This document shows positions 2,672 to 59,408 of a stretch of DNA of 64,000 nt, one piece after another (position 1 is the stretch's first letter; the number at the start of each line of letters is the position of its first letter). Origin of the DNA: an uncultured Acidobacteriota bacterium (GTDB taxonomy: Bacteria; Acidobacteriota; Thermoanaerobaculia; UBA5066; Gp7-AA6); assembly GCA_963775725.1 (NCBI GenBank), contig CAVZKA010000001.1:740309-804308 (forward strand), in the 5' to 3' direction. The translations under genes were made by a program, and so were the position numbers. The notes under the pieces were generated by a model. The model had not been told where the DNA came from and did not search any database. It saw only the letters and a program-made list of their open reading frames with translations.

Positions 2672-3385
2672 CTAGTTCGGCCAGTTCAGGCCGAGCGCCT
2701 TCGCGAGGAAGACGGCCATCTGTCCGCGCGTCACCGGGCTGTCAGGACAGTAGGACCCGCTCCCGCAGCCGCCGGTGATCCCCGACGCCGCGAGGGCCTC
2801 GATGAACTGGTAGAACGGATGCGACGTGGCCACGTCGTTGAACGTCGGTGTGGCGGGCGCAGGGCTGACCTGGAGTCGGTAGCCGAGCACCGCGGTCGTC
2901 GCGGCGGCAGTCGACCCGTCAGCCACGAAGCCGATCTCCAGGAACAAGCGCCGGTTCACGTTGTCGACCACGTAGCCAGCCAGGGCCTTCGTGACGGTCT
3001 GGCAGCCGTCGTCCTGGGAGGCGATCGAGTCGATCAGGGTGAGCGCCCCGCACCCTCCGGCGGCGGCGTCGCAGTCGGCGAGGATCAGCGAGACGTCGTG
3101 GTTTGGAGCGACGTCGTCGTCGCAATACTGGAACTGCATGGAGGTGATGACGGCTCCCGTCGGCAGGCGCGGGTTCGTCACGAACAGCCCGTTGCCGGAG
3201 AGGGCGATCCAGCGGTCGTTGAAGATCTGGCCGTTGGAGATGGGATTGAAGTCGGACGGCTCGAACCGGACGTACGTCGTGTTCGTCGTGCCGTAGGCGG
3301 AGGGGGCCGGACCCTCGGCCGACGCGACGGCCGAGGCCGCGACGAGGGCCGTCAGGACGGCGAGAGCCCGAGGGAATCTGCGCAT
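2672..3385 (-). CDS. Secreted protein with an SLH-like C-terminal domain (paralog A)
   Basis: Signal peptide MRRFPRALAVLTALVAASAVASA. The C-terminus TFNDVATSHPFYQFIEALAASGITGGCGSGSYCPDSPVTRGQMAVFLAKALGL fits the SLH pattern F-DV...F..IE.L...GI..G......P...VTR...A.FL. The N-terminal domain is of unknown family. A paralog lies at 8500..9219. Confidence 0.6.
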   Translation of the reverse strand: MRRFPRALAVLTALVAASAVASAEGPAPSAYGTTNTTYVRFEPSDFNPISNGQIFNDRWIALSGNGLFVTNPRLPTGAVITSMQFQYCDDDVAPNHDVSLILADCDAAAGGCGALTLIDSIASQDDGCQTVTKALAGYVVDNVNRRLFLEIGFVADGSTAAATTAVLGYRLQVSPAPATPTFNDVATSHPFYQFIEALAASGITGGCGSGSYCPDSPVTRGQMAVFLAKALGLNWPN

Positions 3386-4896: not shown

Positions 4897-6060
4897 TCAG
4901 CCCCTCTTGCGCCCCGCCAGCCGCCAGAACTGCGTCTCGTTCAGCAGCGTGATCCGGTGGCCCTTCTCGCGCAGGCGCTTGATCTCGAGCAGCTTCCTGC
5001 CCGCGTCCTTGCCGGCCGCCTGGAGCGGATTGGGCTTGCCCCGGACGACGACGGTCGTCTTCGCGGAGGGCGAGCCGTGGATCTTCGCACCGGCGCGGCG
5101 CGCGGCCCGGGCGGCTTCGATGCGGGGACGGCTGAGGATTCCGGTGAACGCGAGGTGCGCGCCCTTGAGCGTGCGCAGGCGTCCGACCTTGAGGGCCGCA
5201 GGCGGGTGGGTGAGCGCGTCGATCAGTTCCTGCGCGCTCTCGTAGCGCTTGCGGCGCTCGCCGATGCAGCGATAGACGATCTCCTTCAGGTGGTCGGTGC
5301 AGCGCAGGCCCCGCACCTCGCCCGTCCGGATCCGGGCGGCCGCGCTGCCCTTCACGAGCATTCCGAGCAGCTGCCCGACCTGGTAGACGTCGTCGCGCGC
5401 CTGCCACTTGGGGGCGAGTCCGGAGAGGATGTCGCTCGGGACGCCCCACGGGTTCAGCGTGCGCGCGGCGACGCCGCGGCGGTCGCTCTGGTGGCTGACG
5501 ATGCCGAAGTCTCCGAGCTTGAGTGAAACGCCGTCGCAGACGAAGACGTTCATCGGCGTCAGGTCCCGGTGGAGGAGCTGGCCCCGGTGGAGCTTGCCGA
5601 GCACCTCGAGAATGCCGGCGATCTCGCGCCGCGCGGTCCGCTCGGTCCAGCTCTTGCCCGTGCGATCGAGGTAGGCGCGCAGGTCGCCGTGCTTCGCGTA
5701 CTCGAGCGCGAGGCAGTAGAGGACGCTGCCGTCCTCCCGGATCAACGGAAACGCGTCGAAGACGCGGATCGCGCGGGCGTGGCCCGCGAGGAGCTGCCCG
5801 AAATAGGCTTCCTTCAACCAGCCGTCGATGTGCTCGCTCGCCTTGATCGCGACGGCCGCCGGGACCGAGAGGGAGCGCGTCACCCGCGTCGCCAGGTACG
5901 CCTGGCCGAAGCCACCTTGGCCGAGCAGGCTGTCGATCCGGTAGCGCAGGCGCGTCTCGGGACTCGCGATGACCTGCTGCGGGAGCAGCAGGGCCTTGCC
6001 CCGCGCCGCGCGGGTGGCGGCGGACATCCCGAGAGTCGTGGCTCTGGTATCTACGGTCAT
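4897..6060 (-). CDS. Ser/Thr protein kinase with a C-terminal BRCT domain
   Basis: This is the C-terminal 387 aa of track ORF 4897..7359. Kinase motifs: LGQGGFGQAYLA (G-loop), VAIKAS (Lys), HRDLTPMNVFV (catalytic loop), KLGDFG, DVYQVGQLL. The last ~90 aa (LKGAHLAFTGILSRPRIEAARAARRAGAKIHGSPSAKTTVVVRGKPN...GHRITLLNETQFWRLA) resemble a LigA-type BRCT domain. The ORF upstream of 6060 is low-complexity and antisense to a real plus-strand gene. Confidence 0.7.
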   Translation of the reverse strand: MTVDTRATTLGMSAATRAARGKALLLPQQVIASPETRLRYRIDSLLGQGGFGQAYLATRVTRSLSVPAAVAIKASEHIDGWLKEAYFGQLLAGHARAIRVFDAFPLIREDGSVLYCLALEYAKHGDLRAYLDRTGKSWTERTARREIAGILEVLGKLHRGQLLHRDLTPMNVFVCDGVSLKLGDFGIVSHQSDRRGVAARTLNPWGVPSDILSGLAPKWQARDDVYQVGQLLGMLVKGSAAARIRTGEVRGLRCTDHLKEIVYRCIGERRKRYESAQELIDALTHPPAALKVGRLRTLKGAHLAFTGILSRPRIEAARAARRAGAKIHGSPSAKTTVVVRGKPNPLQAAGKDAGRKLLEIKRLREKGHRITLLNETQFWRLAGRKRG

Positions 6061-6144
6061 CGGAAGAGATTCCGCGAGGAGTCTACTGCGGGGTCGCCCC
6101 GGCGTTTCGACGGGCGCAGTAGGATTTGCCGGACGAGGTGACGC

Positions 6145-6876
6145 ATGTCGCAACGGCTCCCATCCCGGATCGCGCTCCTGGCTCTCGCCGCTGCCTTTCC
6201 GGCATGGGCACGCGCGGAAGACCTCCGCGACGTGCTGAAGCGGCAGACGCAGGAGCTCGCCGACGCGGTCGGGACCGGAACGTCGGCGGTGTGGGACGAG
6301 TACCTGGACGCCGGCGTCCTCTTCGTCGACGAGAGCGGCACGGTCGCGACGAAGAAGGAGATGGTCGAACAGCTGAGACCCCTGCCCGAAGGCGTCTCCG
6401 GGTCGATCGCGGTGACCGACTTCGTGGTCGCGGACCACGGCGACGTCGCGGCGACGACGTACGTCGAGGACGAGCACGAGAACTACCATGGGCACGCGCT
6501 CCACTGTCAGTACCGGGCGACGGACGCGTGGAAGCAGACGCCGGCCGGATGGCGGCTGATCGCGAGCCAGGTGCTGGCGCTGCGCACGGACCCGCCGGCG
6601 ATCGCGCTGCGGGTCGCGACGCTCGAGGGCTATTGCGGGAAGTACGCGCTGACGCCGGCGATCGCGTACGAGATCCGCCGCAAGGGCGACGGGCTCGAGG
6701 GGCAGCAGACCGGGCGCAAGCCCGAGACGCTCCTCGTCGAGGCGCCGGACGTCCTGTTCGTGCCGGGCAAGCCGCGTTACCGATATGTCCTCCTGCGCGA
6801 CGCGGCGGGAAAGATCACGGGGATGGCGCAGAGGCGCGAAGCGTGGGACCTGGTCTGGAAGCGGGAGAGCTCGTAG
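6145..6876 (+). CDS. Secreted NTF2-like (SnoaL/DUF4440-type) protein
   Basis: Signal peptide MSQRLPSRIALLALAAAFPAWARA. NTF2-like core AVWDEYLDAGVLFVDESG...YRATDAWKQTPAGWRLIASQV. The C-terminal extension is of unknown function. Confidence 0.6.
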   Translation: MSQRLPSRIALLALAAAFPAWARAEDLRDVLKRQTQELADAVGTGTSAVWDEYLDAGVLFVDESGTVATKKEMVEQLRPLPEGVSGSIAVTDFVVADHGDVAATTYVEDEHENYHGHALHCQYRATDAWKQTPAGWRLIASQVLALRTDPPAIALRVATLEGYCGKYALTPAIAYEIRRKGDGLEGQQTGRKPETLLVEAPDVLFVPGKPRYRYVLLRDAAGKITGMAQRREAWDLVWKRESS

Positions 6877-6887
6877 GAGTCGGGCCG

Positions 6888-7900
6888 TGAAGCCCCGTCG
6901 GATCTTTCCCCTGCGCCGCTCGGCCATCGCCCTGCGCAGAGACCGGGAGGGCGAGAGCCCGCGCACGATCGTCATCGCGCTGATCGCCAACCTCGTCATC
7001 GGCGTCGCGAAGCTGCTCGCGGGGCTCGCCTCGGGGTCGACCGCGCTGATCGCCGAGGCCGCGCACTCGGGGGCCGATTGCGTCAACGAGGTATTTCTCG
7101 CGATCGGGCTGTACCGGTCGCGGCAGCCGCCGGACCAGGTGCATCCGTTCGGGCATGCGCGGGAGCAGTTCCTCTGGGCGTTCATGGCGGCGATCGCGTC
7201 GTTTCTGTTGGGTGGGTGCCTCTCGATCGGTATCGCGGTCCGGGAGCTCGAGTCGCGCGGCCACCCGGTCGTCGGGGGACTCGCGCCGTGGATCGTTCTC
7301 GCGGTCGCGTTCGCGGCGGACGGAGCGTCCTGGCTGCAGGCCATGAAGCAGGCGGGCAAGCAGGCGAAGGACTACGACCTGACGATCGGCCGCTACCTCG
7401 TGCGCGCGAGCGACCCCGTGGTGCGCGCTGTGCTCGTCGAGGACAGCGCGGCGCTCATCGGTCTCGTCCTCGCCGCGGCAGGCCTGTCACTGGCCCGGAT
7501 CACGGGCTCGAACACACCGGACTCCGTCGCGTCGCTGCTGATCGGGGTGCTGCTCGCCGTCACGGCGTTCTTCCTGGCCCGTCCGTTCGCCGATTTCCTG
7601 GTCGGACGCTCCATCGCCGCGCCGCAGCTCGAGCGGCTGCGGGCGATCGTCGAGGGCGACCCGGCGATCGAGGAGGTCTTCGTGCTCCAGGCGATGTACT
7701 CCGGGCCAGAGGAAGTGGTCGTCCTCGGCAAGGCCCGTCCCTCGCCGAGGCTCGGCATCGAAGAGCTCGGCCGCGCGATGGACGAGATCGACCGGAGGAT
7801 CCGGCAGGCGTTCCCGTTCGTCGCCGACGTGTTCATCGACGTGACGAGCGCGCCGGGCTCGGCGGCGCAGACTCCGCATGGCTCTTCAGAACCGCGTTGA
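6888..7900 (+). CDS. Cation diffusion facilitator (CDF) family transporter
   Basis: GTG start chosen downstream of AGGAG (~6874). Family motifs: IALIANLVIGVAKLLAGLASGSTALIAEAAHSGADCV and GHAREQF. Hydrophobic TM core plus a cytoplasmic C-terminal domain. Confidence 0.75.
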
Positions 7901-8606
7901 TCCCTGCGGAGCCCTGCGCTCGACGCCCGAGCGCGGGGCCTGGATGGGCAACCGCGGCGTGCTGCATGACGCGTCGCAGCGCGTCGTCGCGCAGTGGCGG
8001 CTGCAGCGATGGATCACGTGCGTCCTCTCGTGGAAGGGCCGGCGGCGCGAGGTCTTCGCTCCCAACCGGTGGAGCGAGCTGTTCTTCCTGGACGAGGCGA
8101 CCGCGCTCGCGGCGGGGCATCGGCCCTGCGCGGAGTGCCGGCGGCCGCGCTACCTGGAGTTTCGTGCCGCCTGGGAGGCGGGCCGGCGCGGGCGCGACGC
8201 GCGGTCCGGGTTTCTCCGGGCGGACGCGATCGATCGGGTCCTGCACGCGGAGCGGGTGGATCGCACGGGAAGAAAGAAGACGTACCGCGCGGCGCTGTCG
8301 TCGCTTCCCGACGGAACGATGGTGGAGCGCGCGGGCTCGCCGCACCTGGTCTGGCGCGGGAAGCTGCGGCGATGGAGCTTCGGCGGCTATGGTCCGGCAG
8401 TGGACGCCGCGCCCGATGAGGTCGTGGACGTCCTGACGCCGCGCTCGATCGTCGGCGCCATCCGGGCCGGATTCCTGCCGCAGGTCGATCCAGCCGGAAT
8501 CAGTTCGTCCAGTGCATCCCGAGCGCCTTCGCCAGGAACACGGCCATCTGCCGCCGCGTCAGCGGGGCGTCCGGGCAGTAGTTGCCGCCGCCGCAGCCCG
8601 CGGTGA
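7878..8606 (+). CDS. Hypothetical protein with a CxxC motif; boundaries uncertain
   Basis: Track ORF with balanced composition (WMGNRGVLHD...ELFFLDEATALAAGHRPCAECRRPRY). The motif ALAAG-RPC-C is reminiscent of an Ada-type metal-binding segment, but the match is weak. The 3' ~100 nt overlap the convergent gene 8500..9219, so the true stop is uncertain. Confidence 0.35.
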   Translation: MALQNRVDPCGALRSTPERGAWMGNRGVLHDASQRVVAQWRLQRWITCVLSWKGRRREVFAPNRWSELFFLDEATALAAGHRPCAECRRPRYLEFRAAWEAGRRGRDARSGFLRADAIDRVLHAERVDRTGRKKTYRAALSSLPDGTMVERAGSPHLVWRGKLRRWSFGGYGPAVDAAPDEVVDVLTPRSIVGAIRAGFLPQVDPAGISSSSASRAPSPGTRPSAAASAGRPGSSCRRRSPR

Positions 8607-9219
8607 CGCCCGAGGCCACGAGGGCCTCGATGAACTTGAAGCCGGGGTCGATGACGGACACGTCGTTGAAGGTCGCTACGACCGGCGGCGCGCTGACCTG
8701 GCGCCGCCAGTGGATCTGCACGGCGCCGAGACCCGCGTTGGCGTTGAGGGTGGCCCGCACCTGGTGAAACAGGTTCTCGCCGAGGTTGGCGTCGAAATGC
8801 CGGAACACGTAGGAAAACGGCGCCGTGCAGACCACGTCGTAGCCGGTGTCGTAGTCCGCGACGACGTTCGAGCCGGCGACTTCGTCTTCGCCGGTGAACT
8901 GGCCGCTGGCGGGAAGCAGGACCCGGTTGATCGCCGCGACCACCAGCGAGAACGGGTCCGGATCGTTGGCGTAGACGCAGACCTGGAAGATCTCCGCTCC
9001 GTCGGGAAGCTCGAGCGGCGCGACGTACAGCGCCGTCCCGTAGATGTACCCGCTGCCGTAGTTCGTGATCGCCCCGCTGACCAGCGGGCGAAAGGCGGCC
9101 GAGCTGAGCGTGAGGACCTGGTCTCCGAGGCCGTAGGCCTGCGACCGGGCGCTCGACGCGGCGGCGAGGGCGGCGAGGGCGAAGAGCGAAACGAGAAGCG
9201 CACGGCGGCGGGAGGGCAT
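8500..9219 (-). CDS. Secreted protein with an SLH-like C-terminal domain (paralog B)
   Basis: Start set at MPSRRRALLVSLFALAALAAASSARSQA (signal peptide), with AAGGAG ~7 nt upstream. The C-terminus TFNDVSVIDPGFKFIEALVASGVTAGCGGGNYCPDAPLTRRQMAVFLAKALGM is nearly identical in pattern to 2672..3385. Confidence 0.6.
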   Translation of the reverse strand: MPSRRRALLVSLFALAALAAASSARSQAYGLGDQVLTLSSAAFRPLVSGAITNYGSGYIYGTALYVAPLELPDGAEIFQVCVYANDPDPFSLVVAAINRVLLPASGQFTGEDEVAGSNVVADYDTGYDVVCTAPFSYVFRHFDANLGENLFHQVRATLNANAGLGAVQIHWRRQVSAPPVVATFNDVSVIDPGFKFIEALVASGVTAGCGGGNYCPDAPLTRRQMAVFLAKALGMHWTN

Positions 9220-9317
9220 GGAGGGCTCCTTTCCAGCCCATTGTGCGCCGGCCGGGGGCACGGCAGTTGTGATCTGTAGCTCTTGGGCGCCGGGTTTTTC
9301 GCCGGGAGGCCCTCCCC

Positions 9318-9716
9318 CTAGCGACCGGGCTCGGGAACGAGCGTCGGCTTGGACCGGGCCGATCCGGAGGCGCGCAGGCGCTGAAATTCCGACTCGAGCT
9401 GGCTAATCTCGGCTTCGGTCATTCCTTCGAGGCTGATCAATCCGTTGCGCGCGCCCTTCTGCGCGCGGATCAGCTCGTCGAGTTTCAGGGGCATCGCCTT
9501 GGAGTCCCGGTTCTGCGCGTTCTGGACGAGAAAGATCATCAGGAACGTCGCCACCGTCGTCCCGGTGTTGATCACGAGCTGCCAGGTCTCCGAGTAATGA
9601 AAGAACGGGCCCGAGACAGCCCAAACGACGCAGAGCAGGGTCGCGGCCGCAAAGGCCCAGGGGGAGCCCATCGCCGTGGACGCGCGATGGGCGATCTTGC
9701 GGAAGAAGTCGTTCAT
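9318..9716 (-). CDS. Small membrane protein of the low-affinity iron permease (Fet4-like) family
   Basis: C-terminal 132 aa of track ORF 9318..11003, starting MNDFFRKIAH with GGAGAAA upstream. The motif QLVINTGTTVATFLMIFLVQNAQNRDSKAMPLKLDELI is characteristic of the family. The rest of the long ORF is antisense to the FAD monooxygenase gene. Confidence 0.55.
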   Translation of the reverse strand: MNDFFRKIAHRASTAMGSPWAFAAATLLCVVWAVSGPFFHYSETWQLVINTGTTVATFLMIFLVQNAQNRDSKAMPLKLDELIRAQKGARNGLISLEGMTEAEISQLESEFQRLRASGSARSKPTLVPEPGR

Positions 9717-9878
9717 GTCTGCTATTTCTCCCCGGACTCCGCATTTGCAGTTTTCGTGCCGTAGCTGGCCGGGGTTGTGCAGAGGCCCGGTGGCGACCGG
9801 AGAATGATCGAGTCCATGCGCGGCGACTCCTACGGGGCGGCGTACCAGATCAGGAGGTTTTTTGATAAAGAAAGCGCC

Positions 9879-11345
9879 ATGGCGGGCGGCGCTGGAGACA
9901 CCGATGTCCTGATCGTCGGCGCGGGGCCGGTCGGGCTCTTCCTCGCCAACGAGTGCGCGCGCCGCGGCCTTCGATACCGGATCGTCGAGACGCACGCGAC
10001 GCAATCGGAGCACTCCAAGGCGCTCGCCATCTTTCCGCGGACCCTCGAGATCTTCGACATGGCGGGCGTCGCCGGTCCGTTCCTCGAAAAAGCGAACCGC
10101 GCGACGCGTGTCGCCATCGTGGCGCACCAGCGCGGCCTCGCGCACATCCGGTTCGCGCCGGAGGAGACCCCCTACCGCTTCATCGCCATGGTTCCCCAGG
10201 ACGTCACCGAGAAGCTCCTCGCCGCAGAGCTGGGCCGTCGGGGCGGCGGCGTCGAGTACGAGACCGCGTTCGTGTCGGCGGTCGAGCGCGATGGCCGCGT
10301 GAGCGCCGTGCTCGATCACGGGGGCCGGCGCGAGGAGCTCACCGCCGCGTTCGTGGTCGGCTGCGACGGCGCGCACAGCACGATACGGCACCTCCTGAGC
10401 CTGCCGTTCGAGGGTGCCGCGTACGAAGCCCTGTTCATGCTGGCCGACATCCAGACCAACGAGGCCCTCCCCGCCGACGAGCTGCAGCTGTGCCCGAGCG
10501 AGCACGGTCCCGCCGCCATCTTTCCCATGAGCGCGACGCGGCGGCGCGTCGTCGCGACGGTCGATGCCGCCGAGGGCGACGCGCCCTCGCTCGAGCTCGT
10601 GCGCAGAGTCCTGGCCGAGCGCGGGCCCGCGGGAGTCGAAGCGCGGGCCCTCCACTGGAGCAGCTACTTCCGCATTCATCACCGGCGCGCCGGGCAGCTG
10701 CGCGTCGGGCGGATGTTCATCGCCGGCGACGCCGCGCACATCCACAGCCCGTTCGGAGGCCAGGGGATGAACACCGGGCTGCACGACGCCTGGAACCTCG
10801 CCTGGAAGCTCGACCTCGCGCTGCGCGGCCGGGGCAACGAGACGCTGCTCGGCAGCTACGCCGCCGAGCGTCTTCCGGTGATTCGCCACGTCATCGAGAC
10901 GACGCATCGCCTGACGAAGGCGATGGGGACGGCGAGCCGGCTGGCGCAAACCGTGCGCGACGCCGTGATCCCCGTCGTGTCCCGCCTGTCGCCCTTTCAG
11001 CACGCCTTCGTGCAGACGCTCTCGGGCCTGGGGATCGCCTATCGCGGAAGCCCGATCGTCGAGGGGTCCGGCGAGCGGTACTTCGACGACGGGCTGCGCG
11101 GCGGAGCGGGCATTCGGAGCCGGTTTCTGCTCGTCGTCGGCGACGCGGCGGATCCGGGCCCCGGGGCGCGGCAGGCCGCGGCGCGGCTGGCCGGGTCGCT
11201 TCCCGACGTCGTCGAGGTCCGGCCGGGCCCGGGCTCCGGGATCCGGCTCGTCCGGCCCGACGGATACCTGGCGTATTCCGCGCCCGACGCGGACGCAAGC
11301 AGCGTGAACGCCGTGCGTTCACTTCTGGAGCGGCAGACGAAGTAG
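9879..11345 (+). CDS. FAD-dependent aromatic-ring monooxygenase (PheA/TfdB/UbiH family)
   Basis: Trimmed to MAGGAGDTDVLIVGAGPVGLFLANECARRG, the dinucleotide-binding GxGxxG motif. The second FAD motif GRMFIAGDAAHIHSPFGGQGMNTGLHDAWNLAWKL is present. ~490 aa. Confidence 0.8.
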   Translation: MAGGAGDTDVLIVGAGPVGLFLANECARRGLRYRIVETHATQSEHSKALAIFPRTLEIFDMAGVAGPFLEKANRATRVAIVAHQRGLAHIRFAPEETPYRFIAMVPQDVTEKLLAAELGRRGGGVEYETAFVSAVERDGRVSAVLDHGGRREELTAAFVVGCDGAHSTIRHLLSLPFEGAAYEALFMLADIQTNEALPADELQLCPSEHGPAAIFPMSATRRRVVATVDAAEGDAPSLELVRRVLAERGPAGVEARALHWSSYFRIHHRRAGQLRVGRMFIAGDAAHIHSPFGGQGMNTGLHDAWNLAWKLDLALRGRGNETLLGSYAAERLPVIRHVIETTHRLTKAMGTASRLAQTVRDAVIPVVSRLSPFQHAFVQTLSGLGIAYRGSPIVEGSGERYFDDGLRGGAGIRSRFLLVVGDAADPGPGARQAAARLAGSLPDVVEVRPGPGSGIRLVRPDGYLAYSAPDADASSVNAVRSLLERQTK

Positions 11346-17329: not shown

Positions 17330-17661
17330 GCAAACCGGCCGACCTCGTCCAGGGCACCCTGGACCTGCTTCTGCTGAAAATCCTGGCGCTCGAGCCGCTG
17401 CACGGGTGGGCCATCAGCCTTCGCCTGAGGTCGCTTTCCTCCGATGTGCTGCAGGTCAGCGAAGGGTCTCTCTACCCGGCGCTGCACAAGCTCGAGCAGG
17501 AGGGCTGGATCAAGGCCGAGTGGAAGCAGACCGAGAACAACCGGCGCGCAAAGTTCTACTCGCTCACGGCGCTGGGACGAAAAGAGCTCGAATCGGAGGC
17601 GGCGAACTGGAAGCGGCTGTCGACGGCCATCTCGCACGTCGTGCAACTGGCAGAAGCGTAG
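17326..17661 (+). CDS. PadR-family transcriptional regulator
   Basis: Internal Met of track ORF 17152..17661. The sequence LLLLKILALEPLHGWAISLRLRSLSSDVLQVSEGSLYPALHKLEQEGWIKAEW is a canonical PadR winged helix. Confidence 0.8.
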   Translation: MSKPADLVQGTLDLLLLKILALEPLHGWAISLRLRSLSSDVLQVSEGSLYPALHKLEQEGWIKAEWKQTENNRRAKFYSLTALGRKELESEAANWKRLSTAISHVVQLAEA

Positions 17662-17665
17662 GGCC

Positions 17666-20371
17666 ATGCGCATCGCACACTGGTGGTACACGGCGCCGCT
17701 GCGGTTGAAGTCGATCTTCCGCCGCCACCGGGTCGAGAACGAGCTCGACGAGGAGCTGCAGTTTCACCTCGATCACAAGATCGAGGAGGGCATCGCCGAG
17801 GGCCTCTCGCCGGAAGAGGCGCGGTATCGCGCGCTGCGCGCCATGGGCGGGCTCGATCAGAAGAAGGAAGAGATCCGCGACGCGCGGCGCGTCCACTGGC
17901 TGACGGACTTCCTGGACGACGTGCGCTACGCCGTGCGGAGCCTGCGTCGTACGCCCGGACTGACGGCGCTCGTGGTCGTCACGATCGCGCTCGGAATCGG
18001 GATGACGTCGACGCCTCTGAGCATGCTCGATGCGCTGATCTTCCGGCCGTACCCGGTGCCGCACCCGGGCGACGTGGTCACGCTCGTGAGCACGTCCCGC
18101 GACAACGGATTCGAGCCCTTCTCCTACCGCGAGTACCTCGACATCCGCGACCGGGCGAAGAGCTACGACGGCGTGATCGCGAACGCGCCGATCTCGACCG
18201 TCGGCTTCAGCGCCGAGCGCGACGCCACGCCCCTCGTCCGCGGCGGCATGCTGGTCTCCGGCAACTTCTTCCGCGTGCTCGGCGTCGAGCCGGCGGTCGG
18301 CCGCGGCTTCCGGCCGGACGAGGACGAGGCGCCCGGCCGCGACGCGGTCGTGGTCCTCTCGTGGGACTTCTGGCAGCTCGAGTTCGCGGGCGCCGGTTCG
18401 GCCGTCGGCCGGGTCGTGCGCCTGAACGGAAAAGAGTTCACGATCATCGGCGTGGCGCCGGAGACGTTCACCGGGCTGTATATCTTCGACCGCCCCGACC
18501 TCTACATTCCCCTCGCGATGGCGCGCGTGTTCTCGCCGGGCGCGACGAAGGACTTCTTCACGGATCGCGACGACCGCGGCCTGATGGTGCGGGGGCGCCT
18601 CGCGCGGGGGGCGACGCTGCGGCAGGCGCGGAACGAGCTCTCCGTGGTGGCGCGGGATTTCGAGCGCGAGTATCCGAAGGTGAACCGCGAGCGCGGCGCG
18701 GCCGTGCGCACGATGTTCCAGATGCGGACGCAGGACGCCGACCTCAACTGGAAGTTCAGCGTGATCTTCACGACGCTGGCGCTCGCCGTGCTGCTGGTCG
18801 CGTGCACGAACGCCGCCGGGCTCCTGCTCTCCCGCTCCCGGACGCGGACCCGGGAGATCGCCATACGGCTGGCGATCGGGGCGGGGCGCTTCCGGCTGAT
18901 CCGGCTTCTCCTGACGGAGAGCCTGGTGCTCGCGCTCGTCGGCGGCCTGGGCGGGATCGCGGTCGGATACCTGGGCATCCGCGCCATGCAGACCTTCTCC
19001 ATTCCGGCCGAGCTGCCGGTCAAGGTGCCATTCCGGATGGACGGGCGCATGCTCCTGGTCAGCCTCGTGCTGTCGGTTCTCTCCGCGCTCTTCTGCGGCC
19101 TCGCGCCGGCGCTGCAGAGCACGCACACGAACCTGGTGAGGGGCTTGAAGGCGACCGCCGGCGAGGAGTCCGGCGGAGGGCGCAGGCGCCTGTGGGGCCG
19201 GAACGCCCTCGTGGTGGCGCAGATCGCCATGTCGATGATGCTGCTGGCGGCCTGCTTCCTGATGGTCCGGGGGTTTCAGCACAGCATCGGGGAAGGCCCC
19301 GGCTATGCGACGGATCACCTGCTGATGGTCCGGTTCGACCCGCGCCTCGTGCAGTACGACGCGGCGAAGACGGAGCGCTTCTACGAGCAGCTGGCCGCGC
19401 GCGTTCGAGAGGCGCCGGGCGTCGTGAGCGCGGGATTCACCCGGAACCCTCCGCGCGCCCTGGGAGATTTCGACCGCGTGGCGTTCGTGCCGGAGGCGTT
19501 CCAGATGCCGCGCGACCGCCGCAGCCTGACGTCGACGATGGACACCGTCGACGAAGGGTTTTTCGAGACGATGGGCGTCCCGATCCTGCGCGGCCGCGGC
19601 TTCCGCGCGTCCGACACGGCGGCCGCGCCGCGGGTGGCCGTCGTCAACGAGCAGTTCGGCAAGCATTACTGGCCGGGCGCCGATCCGGTGGGCAAGCGCA
19701 TCCGGCTGGAAGGCGCGAATGGCGAACCGGTCGAGATCGTCGGCGTCGCCCGCACGATCAAGTACCGCGACGGGCCCAGCCACAGGGACGAGGATTTCGT
19801 CTACCTGCCGCTCGCGCAGCACCCCGTCGCGCGCATGGTCCTCCTGTTGAAGTCGAGCGGCGACCCGCTGCAGTTGGTCGGCCCCGTCAAGACGATCGTC
19901 CGCGCGCTCGACGCGAACATGCCGATGCTCGAGACGAGGACGTACGAGGACCTCTACCGCTACGGCACCGTGGAGGGGCCGCGCGTCGCCGTCCTGCTCG
20001 TCGGCACGATCGGCGCGGTGGGCCTTCTGCTCGCGATCGCCGGCCTGTACGGTCTCGTCGCGTACAACGTCAGCCGCCGGACGCGCGAGATCGGCATCCG
20101 CATCGCGATCGGCGCGACGCCCCGCGACGTCGTCCGCCTGATGATGGGCAAGGGCCTCGTTCTCGTCGGCGCCGGAGCGGCGATCGGCCTGGCGATGGGT
20201 ATCGGCCTCGAGCGATTCATGAACTCGATGCTGTTCGACGCGGGCGGAGTCGACCTCGTCGTCTACCTCGTCGTCGTGCCGGGGATGCTGCTGGTCACGA
20301 TGCTGGCCGCCTATCTCCCCGCGCGGCGCGCGACCCGGATCCCGCCGACCCTCGCGCTGCGCTGCGAATAG
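17666..20371 (+). CDS. ADOP-type duplicated FtsX/MacB-like ABC transporter permease
   Basis: From MRIAHWWYTAPLRLKSIFRR inside track ORF 17444..20371, ~900 aa. Two FtsX halves are present, each with 4 TM segments, and the protein directly follows a PadR gene (the Acidobacteria-type ADOP arrangement). Antisense ORFs 17564..19822 and 17683..20379 are spurious. Confidence 0.8.
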   Translation: MRIAHWWYTAPLRLKSIFRRHRVENELDEELQFHLDHKIEEGIAEGLSPEEARYRALRAMGGLDQKKEEIRDARRVHWLTDFLDDVRYAVRSLRRTPGLTALVVVTIALGIGMTSTPLSMLDALIFRPYPVPHPGDVVTLVSTSRDNGFEPFSYREYLDIRDRAKSYDGVIANAPISTVGFSAERDATPLVRGGMLVSGNFFRVLGVEPAVGRGFRPDEDEAPGRDAVVVLSWDFWQLEFAGAGSAVGRVVRLNGKEFTIIGVAPETFTGLYIFDRPDLYIPLAMARVFSPGATKDFFTDRDDRGLMVRGRLARGATLRQARNELSVVARDFEREYPKVNRERGAAVRTMFQMRTQDADLNWKFSVIFTTLALAVLLVACTNAAGLLLSRSRTRTREIAIRLAIGAGRFRLIRLLLTESLVLALVGGLGGIAVGYLGIRAMQTFSIPAELPVKVPFRMDGRMLLVSLVLSVLSALFCGLAPALQSTHTNLVRGLKATAGEESGGGRRRLWGRNALVVAQIAMSMMLLAACFLMVRGFQHSIGEGPGYATDHLLMVRFDPRLVQYDAAKTERFYEQLAARVREAPGVVSAGFTRNPPRALGDFDRVAFVPEAFQMPRDRRSLTSTMDTVDEGFFETMGVPILRGRGFRASDTAAAPRVAVVNEQFGKHYWPGADPVGKRIRLEGANGEPVEIVGVARTIKYRDGPSHRDEDFVYLPLAQHPVARMVLLLKSSGDPLQLVGPVKTIVRALDANMPMLETRTYEDLYRYGTVEGPRVAVLLVGTIGAVGLLLAIAGLYGLVAYNVSRRTREIGIRIAIGATPRDVVRLMMGKGLVLVGAGAAIGLAMGIGLERFMNSMLFDAGGVDLVVYLVVVPGMLLVTMLAAYLPARRATRIPPTLALRCE

Positions 20372-38408: not shown

Positions 38409-38580
38409 TGGACGGATGCTCCTTTCTCCGGACGCCGGTCCGATTTCCCCGGGCGTCCCTAGTCAACCCTAATAACGAGCCGGGAGGGTCGGAAGATTAC
38501 CCGCCCGGAACCTTTTCCGGCCGCCGCCGTCAAGGGGAATGACGGGCCACGGGATCGGTGCGTCCGAAAAGGGGGTGGAC

Positions 38581-41034
38581 GTGGAAATCCTGGTGCAGGA
38601 CATCCGGTACGCACTGCGTGGAATGCGCCGGGCCCCCGGGTTCACCGCCGCGGCGATCCTCACGCTGGCCCTCGGGATGGGGGCGACGACGGCGATCTTC
38701 TCGGTCATCCGGGCCGTCCTGCTGTCGCCCCTTCCGTACGCCGAGCCCGAGCGGCGCGTCACGGTCTGGAGCAAGTGGGTCGGCTTCGACAAGACCTGGC
38801 TGGCCGACGGGGAGCTCATGGATTACCGGCGCATGGTCCCGAGCTTCGAGAGCGTCGCGGGGTGGGACGCCGGCGAGGCGAACCTGACCGGCGGCGAGGG
38901 CGAGGCGGCGCGGGTGGGGATGGCGGCGGTCACGGCGAACACCTTCGCGACGCTCGGCGCGCGGCCCCAGGTCGGCCGCGCCTTCACGGACGACGAGGAC
39001 CGGCCCGGCGGCGCTCCCGTCGCAGTGCTCGGATACGGGCTGTGGCAGAACCGGTACGGCGGCGACCCCGACGTTCTCGAAAAGACGATCGAGCTCGACG
39101 GCGTCCCGCGCCGCGTGGTGGGCGTGATGCCGCGGGGCTTCGCGTTGCCGACCGACTTCACCATCAATGCCGCGGAGCCGTCGCAGGTCTGGATCCCGCT
39201 GCAGATCGACCCGAAGGACATCTCCCATGGCAACCACGGCCTGTACGGGGCGGCGGCGCTCGTCCGAGGCGCGACCGCCGAGCGCGCCACGGCGGAGCTG
39301 AAGACGCTGGCGGCGAACCTCACCCGGCAGGGGATCTACCCGGCACAGATGCACTTCGACGCCTTCGCCGTTCCGGTCGAAAAGGAGATCCGCGGGGGCG
39401 CCCGGCGCGCGCTCGTGCTGGTGTTCGGCGCGGTGCTGTTCCTGCTGCTGATGGCGTGCGCGAACGTGGCCAACCTCCTGCTCGCGCGGGCGGAGGGCCG
39501 GATGCGCGAGCTCTCCGTGCGCGCCGCGATCGGCGCGGGCAAGGCGCGGCTGACGCGGCAGCTGCTGACGGAAAGCTTCGTCCTGGCGGTCTCGGGCGGT
39601 CTGCTCGGGCTCGTCTTCGCCTGGGTGGGCGTGCGGCTGATCGCGGCGCACGGGGCCGCGGGTCTACCCGCGCTCGCGCCCCTCGGCATCGAGCCGCGCA
39701 TGATGCTCTTCGCGGCGGCGCTCTCGATCCTGACGACCTTCCTCTTCGGCCTCGCCCCGGCCGTCCAGATGCTGCGCCTCAACCTGACCGAGTCGCTGCG
39801 CGAGAGCGCCGCGAACACGTCGGCGGGCGTGCGGCGCGCGGGCCTGCGCGGCATGCTCGCGGCGGCGCAGATGGCGCTGGCCGTGCTGCTCCTGCTCGGG
39901 GCGGGGTTGATGCTGCGCAGCCTCGACCGGCTCATGCACATCGACCTCGGCTTCCAGCCCGAGCACGTCCTGACGCTCCAGCTCCGGCCGCCCGAGGCGA
40001 CGTACAGGACGCCGGCGTCCGTCGTCGCGTTCTACCGGCAGCTGCTCGAGAACGTGCGCGCGTTGCCCGGGGTGCAGGCGGCCGGGATGGTGCGCCTCCT
40101 GCCGCTCGCGAGCGAAATCGGGGACTGGGGCCTGGAGATCGAGGGCTACGTGCCCCCGGCGGGGTCGCACGCCAAGGGCGACTGGCAGGTCGTGTCGGAC
40201 GGCGCGTTCGAGGCGCTCGGCGAGCGGCTCGTGCGGGGCCGGGCTCTCACGGCGGCGGATTCGGCCGACGCGGTCGGCGTCGTGCTCGTCAACGAGATCC
40301 TGGCGCAGACTTACTGGCCGGGACAGGACCCGATCGGCAAGCGCATGCGCATGGGCGCGAATTCGCAGCGGCCGTGGATGACGGTCGTCGGCATCGTGCG
40401 CAACGAGCGGCACAACTCGGTCACCGGGGCCGTGAAGGAGAAGTTCTACGTGCCGTACGCGCAGTTTCCGATCGCCCGCGAGGGCGACGCGGCGCGGGGC
40501 ATGACTCTCGTCCTCCGCACGGGAGCGGACCCGATGTCGCTCGCCGGACCCGTCCGCGCCGAAGTGCGGCGCCTGGATCCGAACCTCCCGATCGCCAACG
40601 TGCGGCCGATGACCGCGGTCGTGGACGCGTCGCTCGCGACGCCGCGGCTGACGGGCTCGCTGCTCTCGATCTTCGCGGGCCTGGCGATCCTGCTCGCGGG
40701 CGTCGGTGTCGCGGGTGTGCTCGCCTACCTCGTCAGCCGCCGCCGGCGCGAGATCGGGATCCGCATGGCCCTCGGCGCCTCGCGCTGGAACGTGCTCGGC
40801 ATCGTGATCCGGCGGGGCGTCGCGTATGCCGGCGCGGGAATCCTCGTCGGCATCGTGGCGGCGCTCTTCCTCACGCGCCTGATGGAAGGGCTCCTCTATG
40901 ACGTCGCGCCGCGCGACCCGGTGACCTTTGCCGCGGTCACGCTGCTGCTGCTCGGGATCGCCGTCGCCGCGAGCGCCGTGCCCGCGATCCGCGCCGCGCG
41001 GGTGGATCCGCTCGAAGCGCTGCGCGGCGAGTGA
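38581..41034 (+). CDS. ADOP-type duplicated FtsX/MacB-like permease (second copy)
   Basis: GTG at ~38581 preferred: AAGGGGGT lies 8 nt upstream and it gives the typical N-terminus (M)EILVQDIRYALRGMRRAPGFTAAAILTLALGMGATTAIFSVIRAVLLSPLPY. Track ORF starts at 38539. Two FtsX halves. Overlapping ORFs 38775..40901 and 38530..39651 are rejected. Confidence 0.75.
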   Translation: MEILVQDIRYALRGMRRAPGFTAAAILTLALGMGATTAIFSVIRAVLLSPLPYAEPERRVTVWSKWVGFDKTWLADGELMDYRRMVPSFESVAGWDAGEANLTGGEGEAARVGMAAVTANTFATLGARPQVGRAFTDDEDRPGGAPVAVLGYGLWQNRYGGDPDVLEKTIELDGVPRRVVGVMPRGFALPTDFTINAAEPSQVWIPLQIDPKDISHGNHGLYGAAALVRGATAERATAELKTLAANLTRQGIYPAQMHFDAFAVPVEKEIRGGARRALVLVFGAVLFLLLMACANVANLLLARAEGRMRELSVRAAIGAGKARLTRQLLTESFVLAVSGGLLGLVFAWVGVRLIAAHGAAGLPALAPLGIEPRMMLFAAALSILTTFLFGLAPAVQMLRLNLTESLRESAANTSAGVRRAGLRGMLAAAQMALAVLLLLGAGLMLRSLDRLMHIDLGFQPEHVLTLQLRPPEATYRTPASVVAFYRQLLENVRALPGVQAAGMVRLLPLASEIGDWGLEIEGYVPPAGSHAKGDWQVVSDGAFEALGERLVRGRALTAADSADAVGVVLVNEILAQTYWPGQDPIGKRMRMGANSQRPWMTVVGIVRNERHNSVTGAVKEKFYVPYAQFPIAREGDAARGMTLVLRTGADPMSLAGPVRAEVRRLDPNLPIANVRPMTAVVDASLATPRLTGSLLSIFAGLAILLAGVGVAGVLAYLVSRRRREIGIRMALGASRWNVLGIVIRRGVAYAGAGILVGIVAALFLTRLMEGLLYDVAPRDPVTFAAVTLLLLGIAVAASAVPAIRAARVDPLEALRGE

Positions 41035-57630: not shown

Positions 57631-58662
57631 TTAACGCCTTCCGTACAGGAGAAGGACCGTGCGCGCGACGAGGTACGCGAGCACGATCAGGATCGGGGCC
57701 TGGTAGCGCGTGAAGAAGCGTCGTGCGCGCTCGAAGAGATCTTCGTGGTGCGCGCGCACGCGCTCGCCGTCGAGGAACCGGCCGACTTCGGCGGCGACCT
57801 CGGCGGCGCCGTCGTAGCGCGCGGCGGGATCGGCCGCCATCGCGCGCAGGACGACCGACTCGAGCGGGCGCGGGATTCCGGCGTCGATGCGCCGCGGGGG
57901 AAGGGGCGCGAGCCGGGCCTCGCCGCGCGCCCGCCGCCCGGCAGACGCGTCGTCGAAGGGCGCGCGCCCGGTCAGCAGGAAGTGGAGGATCGCCCCGAGC
58001 GCGTAGACGTCCGCGGCCGTCCCCGTGCGTTCGGCGGATCCCTCCGCCTGCTCGGGCGCCATGTAGGCGAGCGTCCCGATGACCTGCCCGTCCGCCGTCC
58101 CCGGAGCCGCCGGCGCCGACCGGGCCGCGGGCGTCCCATCCGGGTCGGTGAGGACCTTTGCCACGCCCCAGTCCATGACGAGCACCTCGCCGAAAGCGCC
58201 GATCATCACGTTCTCGGGTTTCAGGTCCCGGTGCACGACGCCGTGCGCGTGCGCGAAGGCGACGGTCTCGCAGATGCGGCGGAATGCGCGCAGCCGCTCG
58301 GGCAGCGCCATCTTCGGCGCGAGCTCGTCGAGGCGCTTGCCGTCCACGCGCTTCATCGCGTAATAGACGCGGCCGTCCGGGAGCATGCCGGCGTCGTGCA
58401 CCGGCACGATCCCCGGGTGCTCGAGCCGCGCGATGACCCGCGCCTCCGCCCGCAGGCGCTCGACGGTGTCCGGCCGCGCCGCCGCGGTCGCGACGACTTT
58501 CAGCGCCACCTTGCGGCCGAGGACCGTGTCTTCGGCGAGGTAGACCGTGGACATCCCGCCGTGCCCGAGCTCGTCGAGCGGGCGATACTTCGTCTCGCCG
58601 AGGTCCGGCCACTCGGCGACGCGCTTCAGGTGCCGGACGGTCTCGTCGGAGAGCCACCTCAT
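57631..58662 (-). CDS. Ser/Thr protein kinase with a C-terminal transmembrane anchor
   Basis: From MRWLSDETVRHLKRVAEW inside track ORF 57631..58911. Motifs LGHGGMSTVYLA, VALKVV, HRDLKPENVMI, DWGVAK (DFG variant), GTLAYMAPEQ. C-terminal TM helix APILIVLAYLVARTVLLLY. Confidence 0.75.
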   Translation of the reverse strand: MRWLSDETVRHLKRVAEWPDLGETKYRPLDELGHGGMSTVYLAEDTVLGRKVALKVVATAAARPDTVERLRAEARVIARLEHPGIVPVHDAGMLPDGRVYYAMKRVDGKRLDELAPKMALPERLRAFRRICETVAFAHAHGVVHRDLKPENVMIGAFGEVLVMDWGVAKVLTDPDGTPAARSAPAAPGTADGQVIGTLAYMAPEQAEGSAERTGTAADVYALGAILHFLLTGRAPFDDASAGRRARGEARLAPLPPRRIDAGIPRPLESVVLRAMAADPAARYDGAAEVAAEVGRFLDGERVRAHHEDLFERARRFFTRYQAPILIVLAYLVARTVLLLYGRR

Positions 58663-59408
58663 TCCGAGACTCCGAGCAGGCTCTTTGCCTCGTCCCGGAA
58701 CTCGCGGTCGCTCGTCGTGATCTCGCGCAGCTTCTCGAGGACGATGCGCCGGAACTCGCGGCGCGCGAAGGCGAGGAAGTTCGTGACCTGCGTGACGGGA
58801 ATGTGCAGCTCCTCGGCCAGGCGGTCGTACGTGAGCCGCTCCTCCGGGTCGCGGTCGAGCTCGTAGCGCTCGAAGAGCAGGAAGGGCAGGTCCTTGCCGC
58901 GCAATGCGCACTCCTCGCGCAGCGTCTCGACCGAGAGCACGAACAGGCTGCGTACGAACTCGTCGTGGAAGTACTGGTCCATCGTCCGGCCGGCGGCGGG
59001 CGCGCCGCGCGCGATCTCACTCTCGGCGACGTCGAAGTCGAGCGGGACGACCGGCGATCCCGGCGAGCGCTTCTGCCGCAGCGCGGCCTTCCTTTCGTTG
59101 GCGACGTACCGGTCGAGGCAGACGCGCAGGTAGGTGCGGAAGCTGCCTTTCTCCGGTTCGTAGGCCGCGAAGAACTCCTTCTCGAGCGCCCGCGCGAAGA
59201 AGCCCTGGGTCAGGTCCTTGGCTTCCTCGTTGCCTTCGCGGTGGCGGATCCGAAGGTACTTGTAGATGGGCTTCCAGTAGGCGGCGACCAGGATCGAGAG
59301 CCCGCGCTCGCGCTCGATGAGGTCGCCGCTCTGCGCGGCGAGGACGGCGGAATGCCGCGTCGCCGGGAACTTGCCCGAACCCTCCCCGATGCCGGTGTCG
59401 TCGACCAT
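58659..59408 (-). CDS. ECF-type sigma-70 family RNA polymerase sigma factor, extended ~250 aa form
   Basis: From MVDDTGIGEGSG (internal Met of track ORF 58659..59465). Sigma-2-like ILVAAYWKPIYKYLRIRH...AKDLTQGFFARALEK. Sigma-4-like RLTYDRLAEELHIPVTQVTNFLAFARREFRR. Its stop overlaps the kinase start (ATGA). Confidence 0.65.
   Translation of the reverse strand: MVDDTGIGEGSGKFPATRHSAVLAAQSGDLIERERGLSILVAAYWKPIYKYLRIRHREGNEEAKDLTQGFFARALEKEFFAAYEPEKGSFRTYLRVCLDRYVANERKAALRQKRSPGSPVVPLDFDVAESEIARGAPAAGRTMDQYFHDEFVRSLFVLSVETLREECALRGKDLPFLLFERYELDRDPEERLTYDRLAEELHIPVTQVTNFLAFARREFRRIVLEKLREITTSDREFRDEAKSLLGVSE

Follow-up and report, generated by a model that had tools for sequence, protein, structure and literature searches.

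The subject of this analysis is a gene that joins a Hanks-type Ser/Thr kinase domain to a C-terminal BRCT domain, located in a 64,000-nucleotide stretch of DNA (the window) from an uncultured Acidobacteriota bacterium. Its coding sequence occupies positions 4897..6060 (-), starts with an ATG at 6060, ends with a stop codon at 4897-4899, and translates into a protein of 387 residues. The completeness of this coding sequence is supported by the translation, by a protein in public data that is 100% identical to it, by a G+C content at third codon positions (GC3) of 0.85, and by a ratio of nonsynonymous to synonymous substitution rates (dN/dS) of 0.17. More than 120 public clusters are 79-100% identical to the window protein over its full length. 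The original prediction, made from the letters of the window, described a 387-residue product with several motif strings, and every one of these strings was located by coordinate at the place given for it. A mechanical stop-to-stop frame at this locus is considerably longer (4897..7359 (-), 820 codons) and extends far 5' of the start at 6060. This frame is a high-GC artefact, because its surplus upstream part overlaps two real genes on the opposite strand, a DUF4440 gene (6145-6876) and a gene for a cation diffusion facilitator (CDF) transporter (about 6785-7900), and because the homologues start at the same methionine as the window protein, with residues 7-9 also conserved. The 820-codon frame could lead an automatic gene caller to propose a long N-terminal extension.

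The protein consists of a leader, a kinase domain, a linker, a BRCT domain, and a short basic end. The N-terminal leader (residues 1-39; 5944..6060, -) follows the pattern ATT...RGKALLLPQQ...SPET in the close clade, where T8, T9, R20, G21, A23-Q28, S33, and P34 are invariant, and is weakly conserved in the wider family. It is followed by the Hanks-type Ser/Thr kinase domain (residues 40-283; 5212..5943, -), identified by Pfam PF00069 and by profile matches to structures in the PDB. The kinase is connected by a short, proline-rich, basic linker, THPPAALKVGRLR (residues 284-296; 5173..5211, -, position checked), to a single BRCT domain of the LigA/RFC1 class (residues 297-383; 4912..5172, -). 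The linker shows 90% conservation within the close clade and 16% across the wide family, and its predicted local-distance difference test (pLDDT) score is below 50 in both AlphaFold2 (AF2) models described below. The protein ends in the basic tail RKRG, which together with the stop codon occupies 4897..4911 (-) and varies in length and sequence among relatives. No hydrophobic or transmembrane segment was found in the protein (maximum Kyte-Doolittle hydropathy over 19 residues, 1.18), which makes it a soluble, cytoplasmic protein.

The kinase core is complete and, judged by its residues, apparently active, in line with the complete core proposed originally. Pfam Pkinase (PF00069) matches residues 40-250 with an E-value of 3.4e-19 and 69.7 bits, well above the cut-off of 31.7. 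When a profile of the family was compared with the PDB, the kinase structures of PknB, PLK4, CDK6, Nek7, and PDK1 were matched at about 1e-12, with PknB at about 6e-12. An exhaustive search of cluster representatives retrieved 194 clusters at E < 1e-30, including full-length relatives down to about 30% identity, and the wide family is represented here by an alignment of 51 diverse relatives, also down to 30% identity. The sole columns invariant in this alignment are G49, K73, E84, F104, H158, H164, D166, P169, N171, D184, G186, and D224. All twelve are canonical kinase-core positions, and eight of them (G49, K73, E84, H164, D166, N171, D184, and D224) are the classic catalytic residues. The glycine-rich loop LGQGGFGQAYLA (residues 46-57; 5890..5925, -) contains the invariant G49 together with the near-invariant G47, G50, and G52, and the catalytic lysine K73 lies within the VAIK motif (5842..5844, -). 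The catalytic loop HRDLTPMN (residues 164-171; 5548..5571, -) combines the invariant H164, D166, P169, and N171 with a near-invariant R165, which makes the kinase RD type. Next comes the DFG motif (residues 184-186; 5503..5511, -), with D184 and G186 invariant and F185 near-invariant, and the segment DVYQVGQLL corresponds to residues 224-232. The APE position had been reported to read APK; this reading is confirmed at residues 216-218 (5407..5415, -), where A216-P217-K218 is invariant in the close clade, and the residue that follows AP is variable across the wider family. No activation-loop Ser or Thr is conserved across the wide family. The protein does not belong to the named equivalogs tested: PknB_PASTA_kin (NCBIfam NF033483) scores 50.1 bits against a cut-off of 450, with no PASTA match, and MADS6 (NCBIfam NF047741) scores 48.8 bits against a cut-off of 460.

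The C-terminal domain is a ligase-type BRCT domain, as the last ~90 residues had originally been proposed to be, and sequence profile, predicted fold, and fold search agree on this assignment; none of them places the segment in a non-BRCT fold. The tail includes the strings LKGAHLAFTGILSRPRIEAARAARRAGAKIHGSPSAKTTVVVRG (residues 298-341) and GHRITLLNETQFWRLA (residues 367-382). On the full-length protein, Pfam BRCT (PF00533) scores 21.1 bits, 0.2 below its cut-off of 21.3. On residues 284-387 alone it scores 24.9 bits (E = 2.5e-5), above that cut-off, and the same profile matches the tails of 17 of 17 relatives; full-length relatives of differing relatedness score 21.8-29.3 bits, with all six tested exceeding the cut-off. 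The best NCBIfam match to the tail is PRK06195, a DnaQ-BRCT protein (1.6e-7; residues 283-380 aligned to profile positions 219-304 of 309), at 31 bits against a family cut-off of 373, and the NCBIfam LigA profile aligns with the same residues 283-380 at 2.2e-5. A profile of the family tail, built from a diverse alignment of 36 sequences with 32-84% identity to the window tail, was compared with the PDB and matched the BRCT domains of human RFC1 (8.8e-11), Thermus LigA (6.9e-10), yeast Rfc1 (6e-9), and E. coli LigA (5.7e-9), with no other significant match beyond the BRCT domains of RFC1 and LigA. The AF2 model of the tail (residues 282-387, predicted from the diverse alignment) has a pLDDT of 70.9 and the secondary-structure order β1-α1-β2-β3-α2-β4-α3. 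Foldseek with this model returned the LigA BRCT domain (7.6e-6) and the RFC1 BRCT domain as best matches, followed by the BRCT domains of Dbf4, Rad4, and PARP1. The full-length AF2 model, predicted from 41 sequences that are 79-100% identical, reaches a pLDDT of 55.7, with the tail below 50. At JGI, fragments of the family already carried one of two labels, 'BRCT domain type II-containing protein' and 'NAD-dependent DNA ligase'. In most bacteria, BRCT occurs only in DNA ligase and in a protein resembling the epsilon subunit of DNA polymerase III (a DnaQ-like exonuclease), according to a 2023 review (PMC10386641), which agrees with the rarity of bacterial BRCT outside LigA that had been remarked on originally.

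The residues that form the phosphate-binding pocket of BRCT domains are retained in the window protein. We mapped them by aligning the tail to LigA and RFC1, and the reference numbering was counted from those alignments. T306-G307 (5140..5145, -) aligns with T415-G416 of human RFC1 and S1655-G1656 of BRCA1, and R313 (5122..5124, -) aligns with R423 of human RFC1 and with the arginine of the LigA 'SRPR' motif. The G-x-K motif at the start of helix α2, G354-R-K356 (4993..5001, -), corresponds to G-Q-S-K458 in human RFC1 and G206-P-K208 in yeast Rfc1 in our own reading of the canonical motif, the HMMER alignment having placed it on a later 'GTKII' segment of RFC1. These positions are strongly conserved among the 51 relatives: T306 in 48, G307 in 46, R313 in 46, G354 in 50, and K356 in 49. 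The closest sequence relatives of the domain are the DNA-binding BRCT domains of LigA and RFC1, and the T-G, Arg, and G-x-K elements of that subclass are conserved. Isolated human RFC1 BRCT binds DNA with a recessed 5'-phosphate with a Kd of about 10 nM, and K208 of yeast Rfc1 lines the cavity that houses the recessed 5' end (PMC9293004).

The tail is also strongly basic and presents a polycationic surface, with a net charge of +20 over 104 residues and an isoelectric point of 12.0. Tails of the close clade average +17.4 in net charge and those of distant members +10.9, and comparable segments carry +4 in LigA, -2 in human RFC1, and +5 in yeast Rfc1. Between β3 and α2 lies an insertion of ~9 residues (NPLQAAGKD), which has low confidence in the AF2 model. 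Conservation of the BRCT domain equals that of the kinase (86.8% versus 85.0% in the close clade; 38% versus 40% in the wide family), and both halves of the protein are under purifying selection.

The fusion of kinase and BRCT recurs in hundreds of relatives from independent assemblies held at NCBI, ENA, JGI, and Logan, and it is therefore not a product of two open reading frames (ORFs) joined by error; the kinase and the tail did not prove to be separate genes, the outcome that the original prediction had named as fatal to it. Soil and rhizosphere metagenomes are rich in close relatives (67-100% identity), which, where named, come from metagenome-assembled genomes (MAGs) of Thermoanaerobaculia or Acidobacteriota. 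A MAG labelled Vicinamibacterales carries a 66% identical copy, the only true member of the family among the matches listed, which include 79 unrelated kinases. A second large branch, at 35-45% identity, is assigned to Bryobacteraceae where named. This taxonomic range is read from the source names of the sequences and is incomplete. The family is large and conserved in soil Acidobacteriota; neither this nor the TY-Chap3-bearing long form described below was part of the original prediction. One relative that is 80% identical (P0116) bears the NCBI label 'Syntrophomonadaceae bacterium' (Firmicutes), all other named close relatives being Acidobacteriota; this likely reflects a mis-binned contig rather than a cross-phylum transfer. 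Searches of phage and plasmid records turned up no relative bearing the tail, and those of IMG/VR viral contigs no close one.

About one-tenth of the members listed for the 35-45% branch are long forms of 500-550 residues that carry an additional N-terminal TY-Chap3 domain (PF22552), with scores of 55.8-74.4 bits. Examples are P0264, P0393, and P0402, as well as the genes at L089 8001-9596 and L088 8001-9593. The window protein has no match to PF22552, its kinase being preceded by the 39-residue leader only, and is a short form. BrxB/BrxC/PglX-like (BREX) genes are situated 2 kb away from one long form, another adjoins genes for a DUF6361 protein and a 1155-residue Helicase_C protein, and a third stands beside an AlkA_N glycosylase gene. 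TY-Chap3 is a predicted peptide-binding, chaperone-like module that was defined in antiviral systems centred on ADP-ribosylglycohydrolase, and the paper that defined it does not mention the TY-Chap3-kinase-BRCT architecture (PMC9503650).

Comparison with the closest genome, L001, the only one of seven diverse loci that is syntenic with the window, allows the rate of evolution of the gene to be set against that of its neighbours. The kinase-BRCT proteins are 90.7% identical, with a dN/dS of 0.17 and a synonymous divergence (dS) of 0.38. The CMD gene encodes proteins that are 85% identical (dN/dS 0.21, dS 0.35), the FAD monooxygenase is 69% identical (dN/dS 0.32), and orf185 is 75% identical (dN/dS 0.33), the dS values of the last two being 0.60-0.67. 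The kinase-BRCT gene thus has the lowest dN/dS of the four genes compared, a pattern that points to strong purifying selection at a vertically inherited locus. Recent horizontal transfer within the window/L001 pair, proposed from the greater similarity of the kinase relative to its neighbours, was considered and rejected given the syntenic position and a dS of 0.38 versus 0.35 for CMD. In L001, a gene with Y1_Tnp and Bac_DnaA_C domains (9496-10497), transposase-type by its Y1_Tnp domain, lies between the kinase-BRCT and CMD genes that are adjacent in the window.

The reading we favour, tentatively and with somewhat less than even confidence, is that the BRCT domain tethers the kinase to, or activates it on, DNA nicks, gaps, and ends that carry a 5'-phosphate. 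The BRCT domain would serve as a targeting and sensing module for a phosphate-bearing polyanion. By analogy with isolated RFC1 BRCT and with LigA, this ligand would most likely be duplex DNA in which a nick, gap, or recessed end presents a 5'-phosphate. The RD-type kinase would thereby be concentrated at such discontinuities, where it could autophosphorylate in trans and phosphorylate proteins bound to the DNA, for instance those of repair, replication, or the nucleoid, so that a single polypeptide would serve as both sensor and transducer of DNA discontinuities. A link to DNA damage or replication is suggested by the conserved pocket residues and the +20 charge of the tail, and the best matches to LigA and RFC1, the purifying selection, and the solubility of the protein are also consistent with the reading. 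A broader version, which we regard as distinctly doubtful, would make the family a bacterial one-polypeptide sensor kinase for DNA discontinuities (or for ADP-ribosylated DNA) that switches on Ser/Thr phosphorylation of repair, replication, or nucleoid proteins, with the TY-Chap3 long forms derived from it for anti-phage conflict. If true, bacteria would possess in this family an equivalent of the BRCT-dependent checkpoint signalling by which eukaryotes respond to DNA damage.

Several observations weigh against the tethering of the kinase to 5'-phosphate DNA. RFC1 requires an extra N-terminal helix for tight DNA binding, and the equivalent region of the window protein is a short linker. K334, which aligns with the DNA-contacting K195 of yeast Rfc1, is Lys or Arg in the close clade only and is not conserved outside it. 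Confidence is only medium for the tail model (pLDDT 71) and low for the full-length model (pLDDT 56), and both the DNA binding and the kinase activity of the protein are predicted properties. No DNA-repair or replication gene occurs as a conserved neighbour in about 90 loci. In the full RFC complex, moreover, the BRCT domain contacts DNA in a manner unlike that of the isolated-domain model and contributes only about two-fold to binding (PMC9293004), so that conservation of the pocket is no proof of 5'-phosphate recognition. The same BRCT pocket serves as a phosphopeptide site in BRCA1, 53BP1, and TOPBP1, as a DNA-end site in RFC1, and as a poly(ADP-ribose) site in XRCC1 (PMC6334254), and the pocket of the window protein is chemically compatible with phosphoserine or phosphothreonine and with ADP-ribose.

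Other explanations compete with DNA tethering. In a logic akin to that of Chk2/Rad53, the pocket would bind phosphoserine or phosphothreonine on the kinase itself or on primed substrates, bringing about dimerization and trans-activation or processive phosphorylation with no direct contact to DNA. We consider this unlikely, though it is the foremost competitor of DNA tethering: tandem BRCT pairs are typical of high-affinity phosphopeptide binding and the domain here is single, its best sequence matches belong to the DNA-binding LigA/RFC1 class rather than to phosphopeptide binders, the net charge of +20 far exceeds the need of a peptide pocket, and no Ser or Thr of the activation loop is conserved in the wide family. 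Less probable again is a sensor of nucleotides or ADP-ribose. The pocket would then have NAD+, ADP-ribose, or ADP-ribosylated DNA or protein as its ligand, like the BRCT domains of XRCC1 and Ligase IV, and would couple the kinase to ADP-ribosylation or NAD-derived signals. We give this very little weight, since the tail is most similar to LigA and RFC1 and not to XRCC1, and since an ADP-ribosyltransferase (ART), macro-domain, or ADP-ribosylglycohydrolase (ARG) gene adjoins none of about 90 family loci; bacteria in general are not known to make poly(ADP-ribose), which also counts against it. That the protein is an artefact is effectively refuted, whether one supposes that an error of assembly or a frameshift joined two genes or that the kinase has a chance, functionless BRCT-like tail. 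The full-length Pfam score just under the cut-off and the low confidence of the first AF2 model for the tail might have hinted at it, but hundreds of independent assemblies contain the same fusion, tail and kinase are equally conserved, the scores of the tail alone and of the relatives exceed the cut-off, and the family profile matches solved BRCT domains with an E-value of 1e-10.

A role as a conflict or anti-phage kinase of the PD-T4-6 or Stk2 type, in which invading DNA ends or modified macromolecules would be recognised by the BRCT domain and answered by the kinase with a shutdown of host or phage functions, is improbable for the window gene and more plausible for the TY-Chap3 long forms. 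The top PADLOC profiles are PD-T4-6 (75.4 bits, 1.4e-21, residues 38-241) and mad6 (73 bits, 6.7e-21), the gene stands alone with neighbours that vary even among relatives 67-93% identical, and the long forms carry a domain known from predicted antiviral systems that counter ADP-ribose, one of them lying near the BREX-like genes and another by DUF6361 and large Helicase_C proteins. However, the PADLOC matches are confined to the generic kinase core, PADLOC supplies no curated cut-off and such models match generic Hanks kinases, and MADS6 reaches 48.8 bits against 460. The window gene lacks TY-Chap3 and sits amid metabolic and transport genes, and the defence-island evidence comes from two of the three long-form loci. 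A syntenic position, a dS near that of a neighbour, the lowest dN/dS of four genes (0.17), and a 66% identical copy in the Vicinamibacterales-labelled MAG are unlike the behaviour of fast-evolving, patchy defence genes, and the searches of phage and plasmid records, which found no copies, point the same way. The DNA-sensing and defence readings are compatible with each other.

Known systems share parts of this design. Bacterial Hanks-type kinases such as PknB of M. tuberculosis have the same catalytic core (glycine-rich loop, VAIK Lys, αC Glu, HRD, Asn, and DFG), whereas the window protein has no transmembrane helix, PASTA, TPR, or other usual sensor domain, carries BRCT as its accessory domain, and does not conserve the APE Glu; receptor-type Hanks kinases of bacteria are mostly not soluble. 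The BRCT domains of LigA and RFC1 have the T-G, Arg, and G-x-K pocket residues in common with the window tail and are likewise single rather than tandem, that of LigA being C-terminal as well. The window domain differs from both in its partner, a protein kinase in place of a ligase or AAA+ clamp-loader module, in its ~9-residue insertion between β3 and α2, in a longer α2 helix, and in being far more basic, and it differs from RFC1 in lacking the extra N-terminal helix. The PRK06195-type DnaQ-like exonuclease is similarly a bacterial catalytic domain followed by one C-terminal BRCT, although that catalytic domain is a 3'-5' exonuclease and not a kinase. Chk2/Rad53 (FHA plus kinase) and Dbf4-Cdc7 (BRCT on the regulatory subunit) embody the same design principle, a phospho-ligand module combined with a Ser/Thr kinase in DNA-damage or replication signalling. 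The FHA domain of Chk2/Rad53 acts in cis and the Dbf4 BRCT in trans, whereas the window BRCT lies in cis; a damage-signalling role here is putative, and no common descent with either system is evident beyond the generic domains. The defence kinases PD-T4-6, Stk2, and MADS6 provide the top PADLOC profiles over the kinase core, and the window gene is stand-alone too, as PD-T4-6 is described as a single-gene kinase system; the match is limited to the kinase domain, however, and the window gene has no defence-island context.

The component domains are textbook, and in databases the protein already bears the annotation 'protein kinase'. A literature search with incomplete coverage of subscription journals found no published description of a bacterial kinase-BRCT fusion, and surveys of domain architecture may mention it. 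Hanks kinases of bacteria occur in fusion with many accessory domains, so that one more partner is not new in kind. What is understood of DNA-damage signalling in bacteria concerns almost exclusively RecA/LexA and a few transcriptional systems, and BRCT-dependent phospho-signalling is regarded as a eukaryotic hallmark. A conserved, selected family of Hanks kinase-BRCT proteins is a testable candidate for kinase signalling at DNA nicks and ends in bacteria, and it occurs in Acidobacteriota, which dominate soils and have barely been studied genetically. The protein is small, soluble, and modular. Should the BRCT domain read phosphopeptides or ADP-ribose instead, it would nonetheless add a new sensor module to those of bacterial Ser/Thr kinases.

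The gene setting is uninformative, as had been noted originally for the AhpD-like, NTF2-like, and CDF neighbours, whose annotations are confirmed and whose lack of functional context extends to about 90 loci. The neighbours in the window encode a CMD/AhpD-like protein, a DUF4440/SnoaL (NTF2-like) protein, a Cation_efflux (CDF) transporter, a cupin, SLH proteins, and an FAD monooxygenase. An all-versus-all comparison of flanking ORFs in seven diverse loci found no conserved neighbour, synteny being restricted to L001, and 80 soil and rhizosphere metagenome loci (L090-L169) contained no conserved neighbour or operon partner. No PP2C, FHA, repair, or ART/ARG partner was present among the flanking ORFs compared in these 7 + 80 loci, and neighbours vary even among relatives 67-93% identical. 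The commonest neighbour cluster in the 80 metagenome loci, present in 12 of them in mixed orientation, is an unrelated Ser/Thr kinase that often has PD40/Tricorn-like C-terminal repeats, a pattern that is probably explained by the many kinases these genomes encode and not by functional pairing. An Rfam scan of the window gave no match, and a scan of the kinase-BRCT locus for promoters and terminators gave nothing exceeding background.

Other features of the window deserve brief mention. A 242-residue ORF at 7878-8606 (+) without a Pfam match has a relative in L001 (4977-5534) that is 75% identical over 169 residues and is a conserved hypothetical. Two paralogous small proteins (38% identity, E = 2e-33), encoded at 2672-3385 (-) and 8500-9261 (-), flank the kinase locus; each has one C-terminal SLH domain ending in ...GGCG.G.YCPD.P.TR.QMAVFLAKALG..W.N. 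and an N-terminal part without a Pfam match. A second Hanks-type kinase at 57634-59016 (-) (Pkinase, 3.4e-36) lacks a BRCT tail and shares only ~27% identity with the kinase-BRCT protein. Two large genes for MacB_PCD/FtsX permeases, a group often expanded in Acidobacteriota and so in keeping with the inferred origin of the window, lie at 17429-20368 (+) and 38476-41031 (+), with stop-to-stop frames of 980 and 852 codons.

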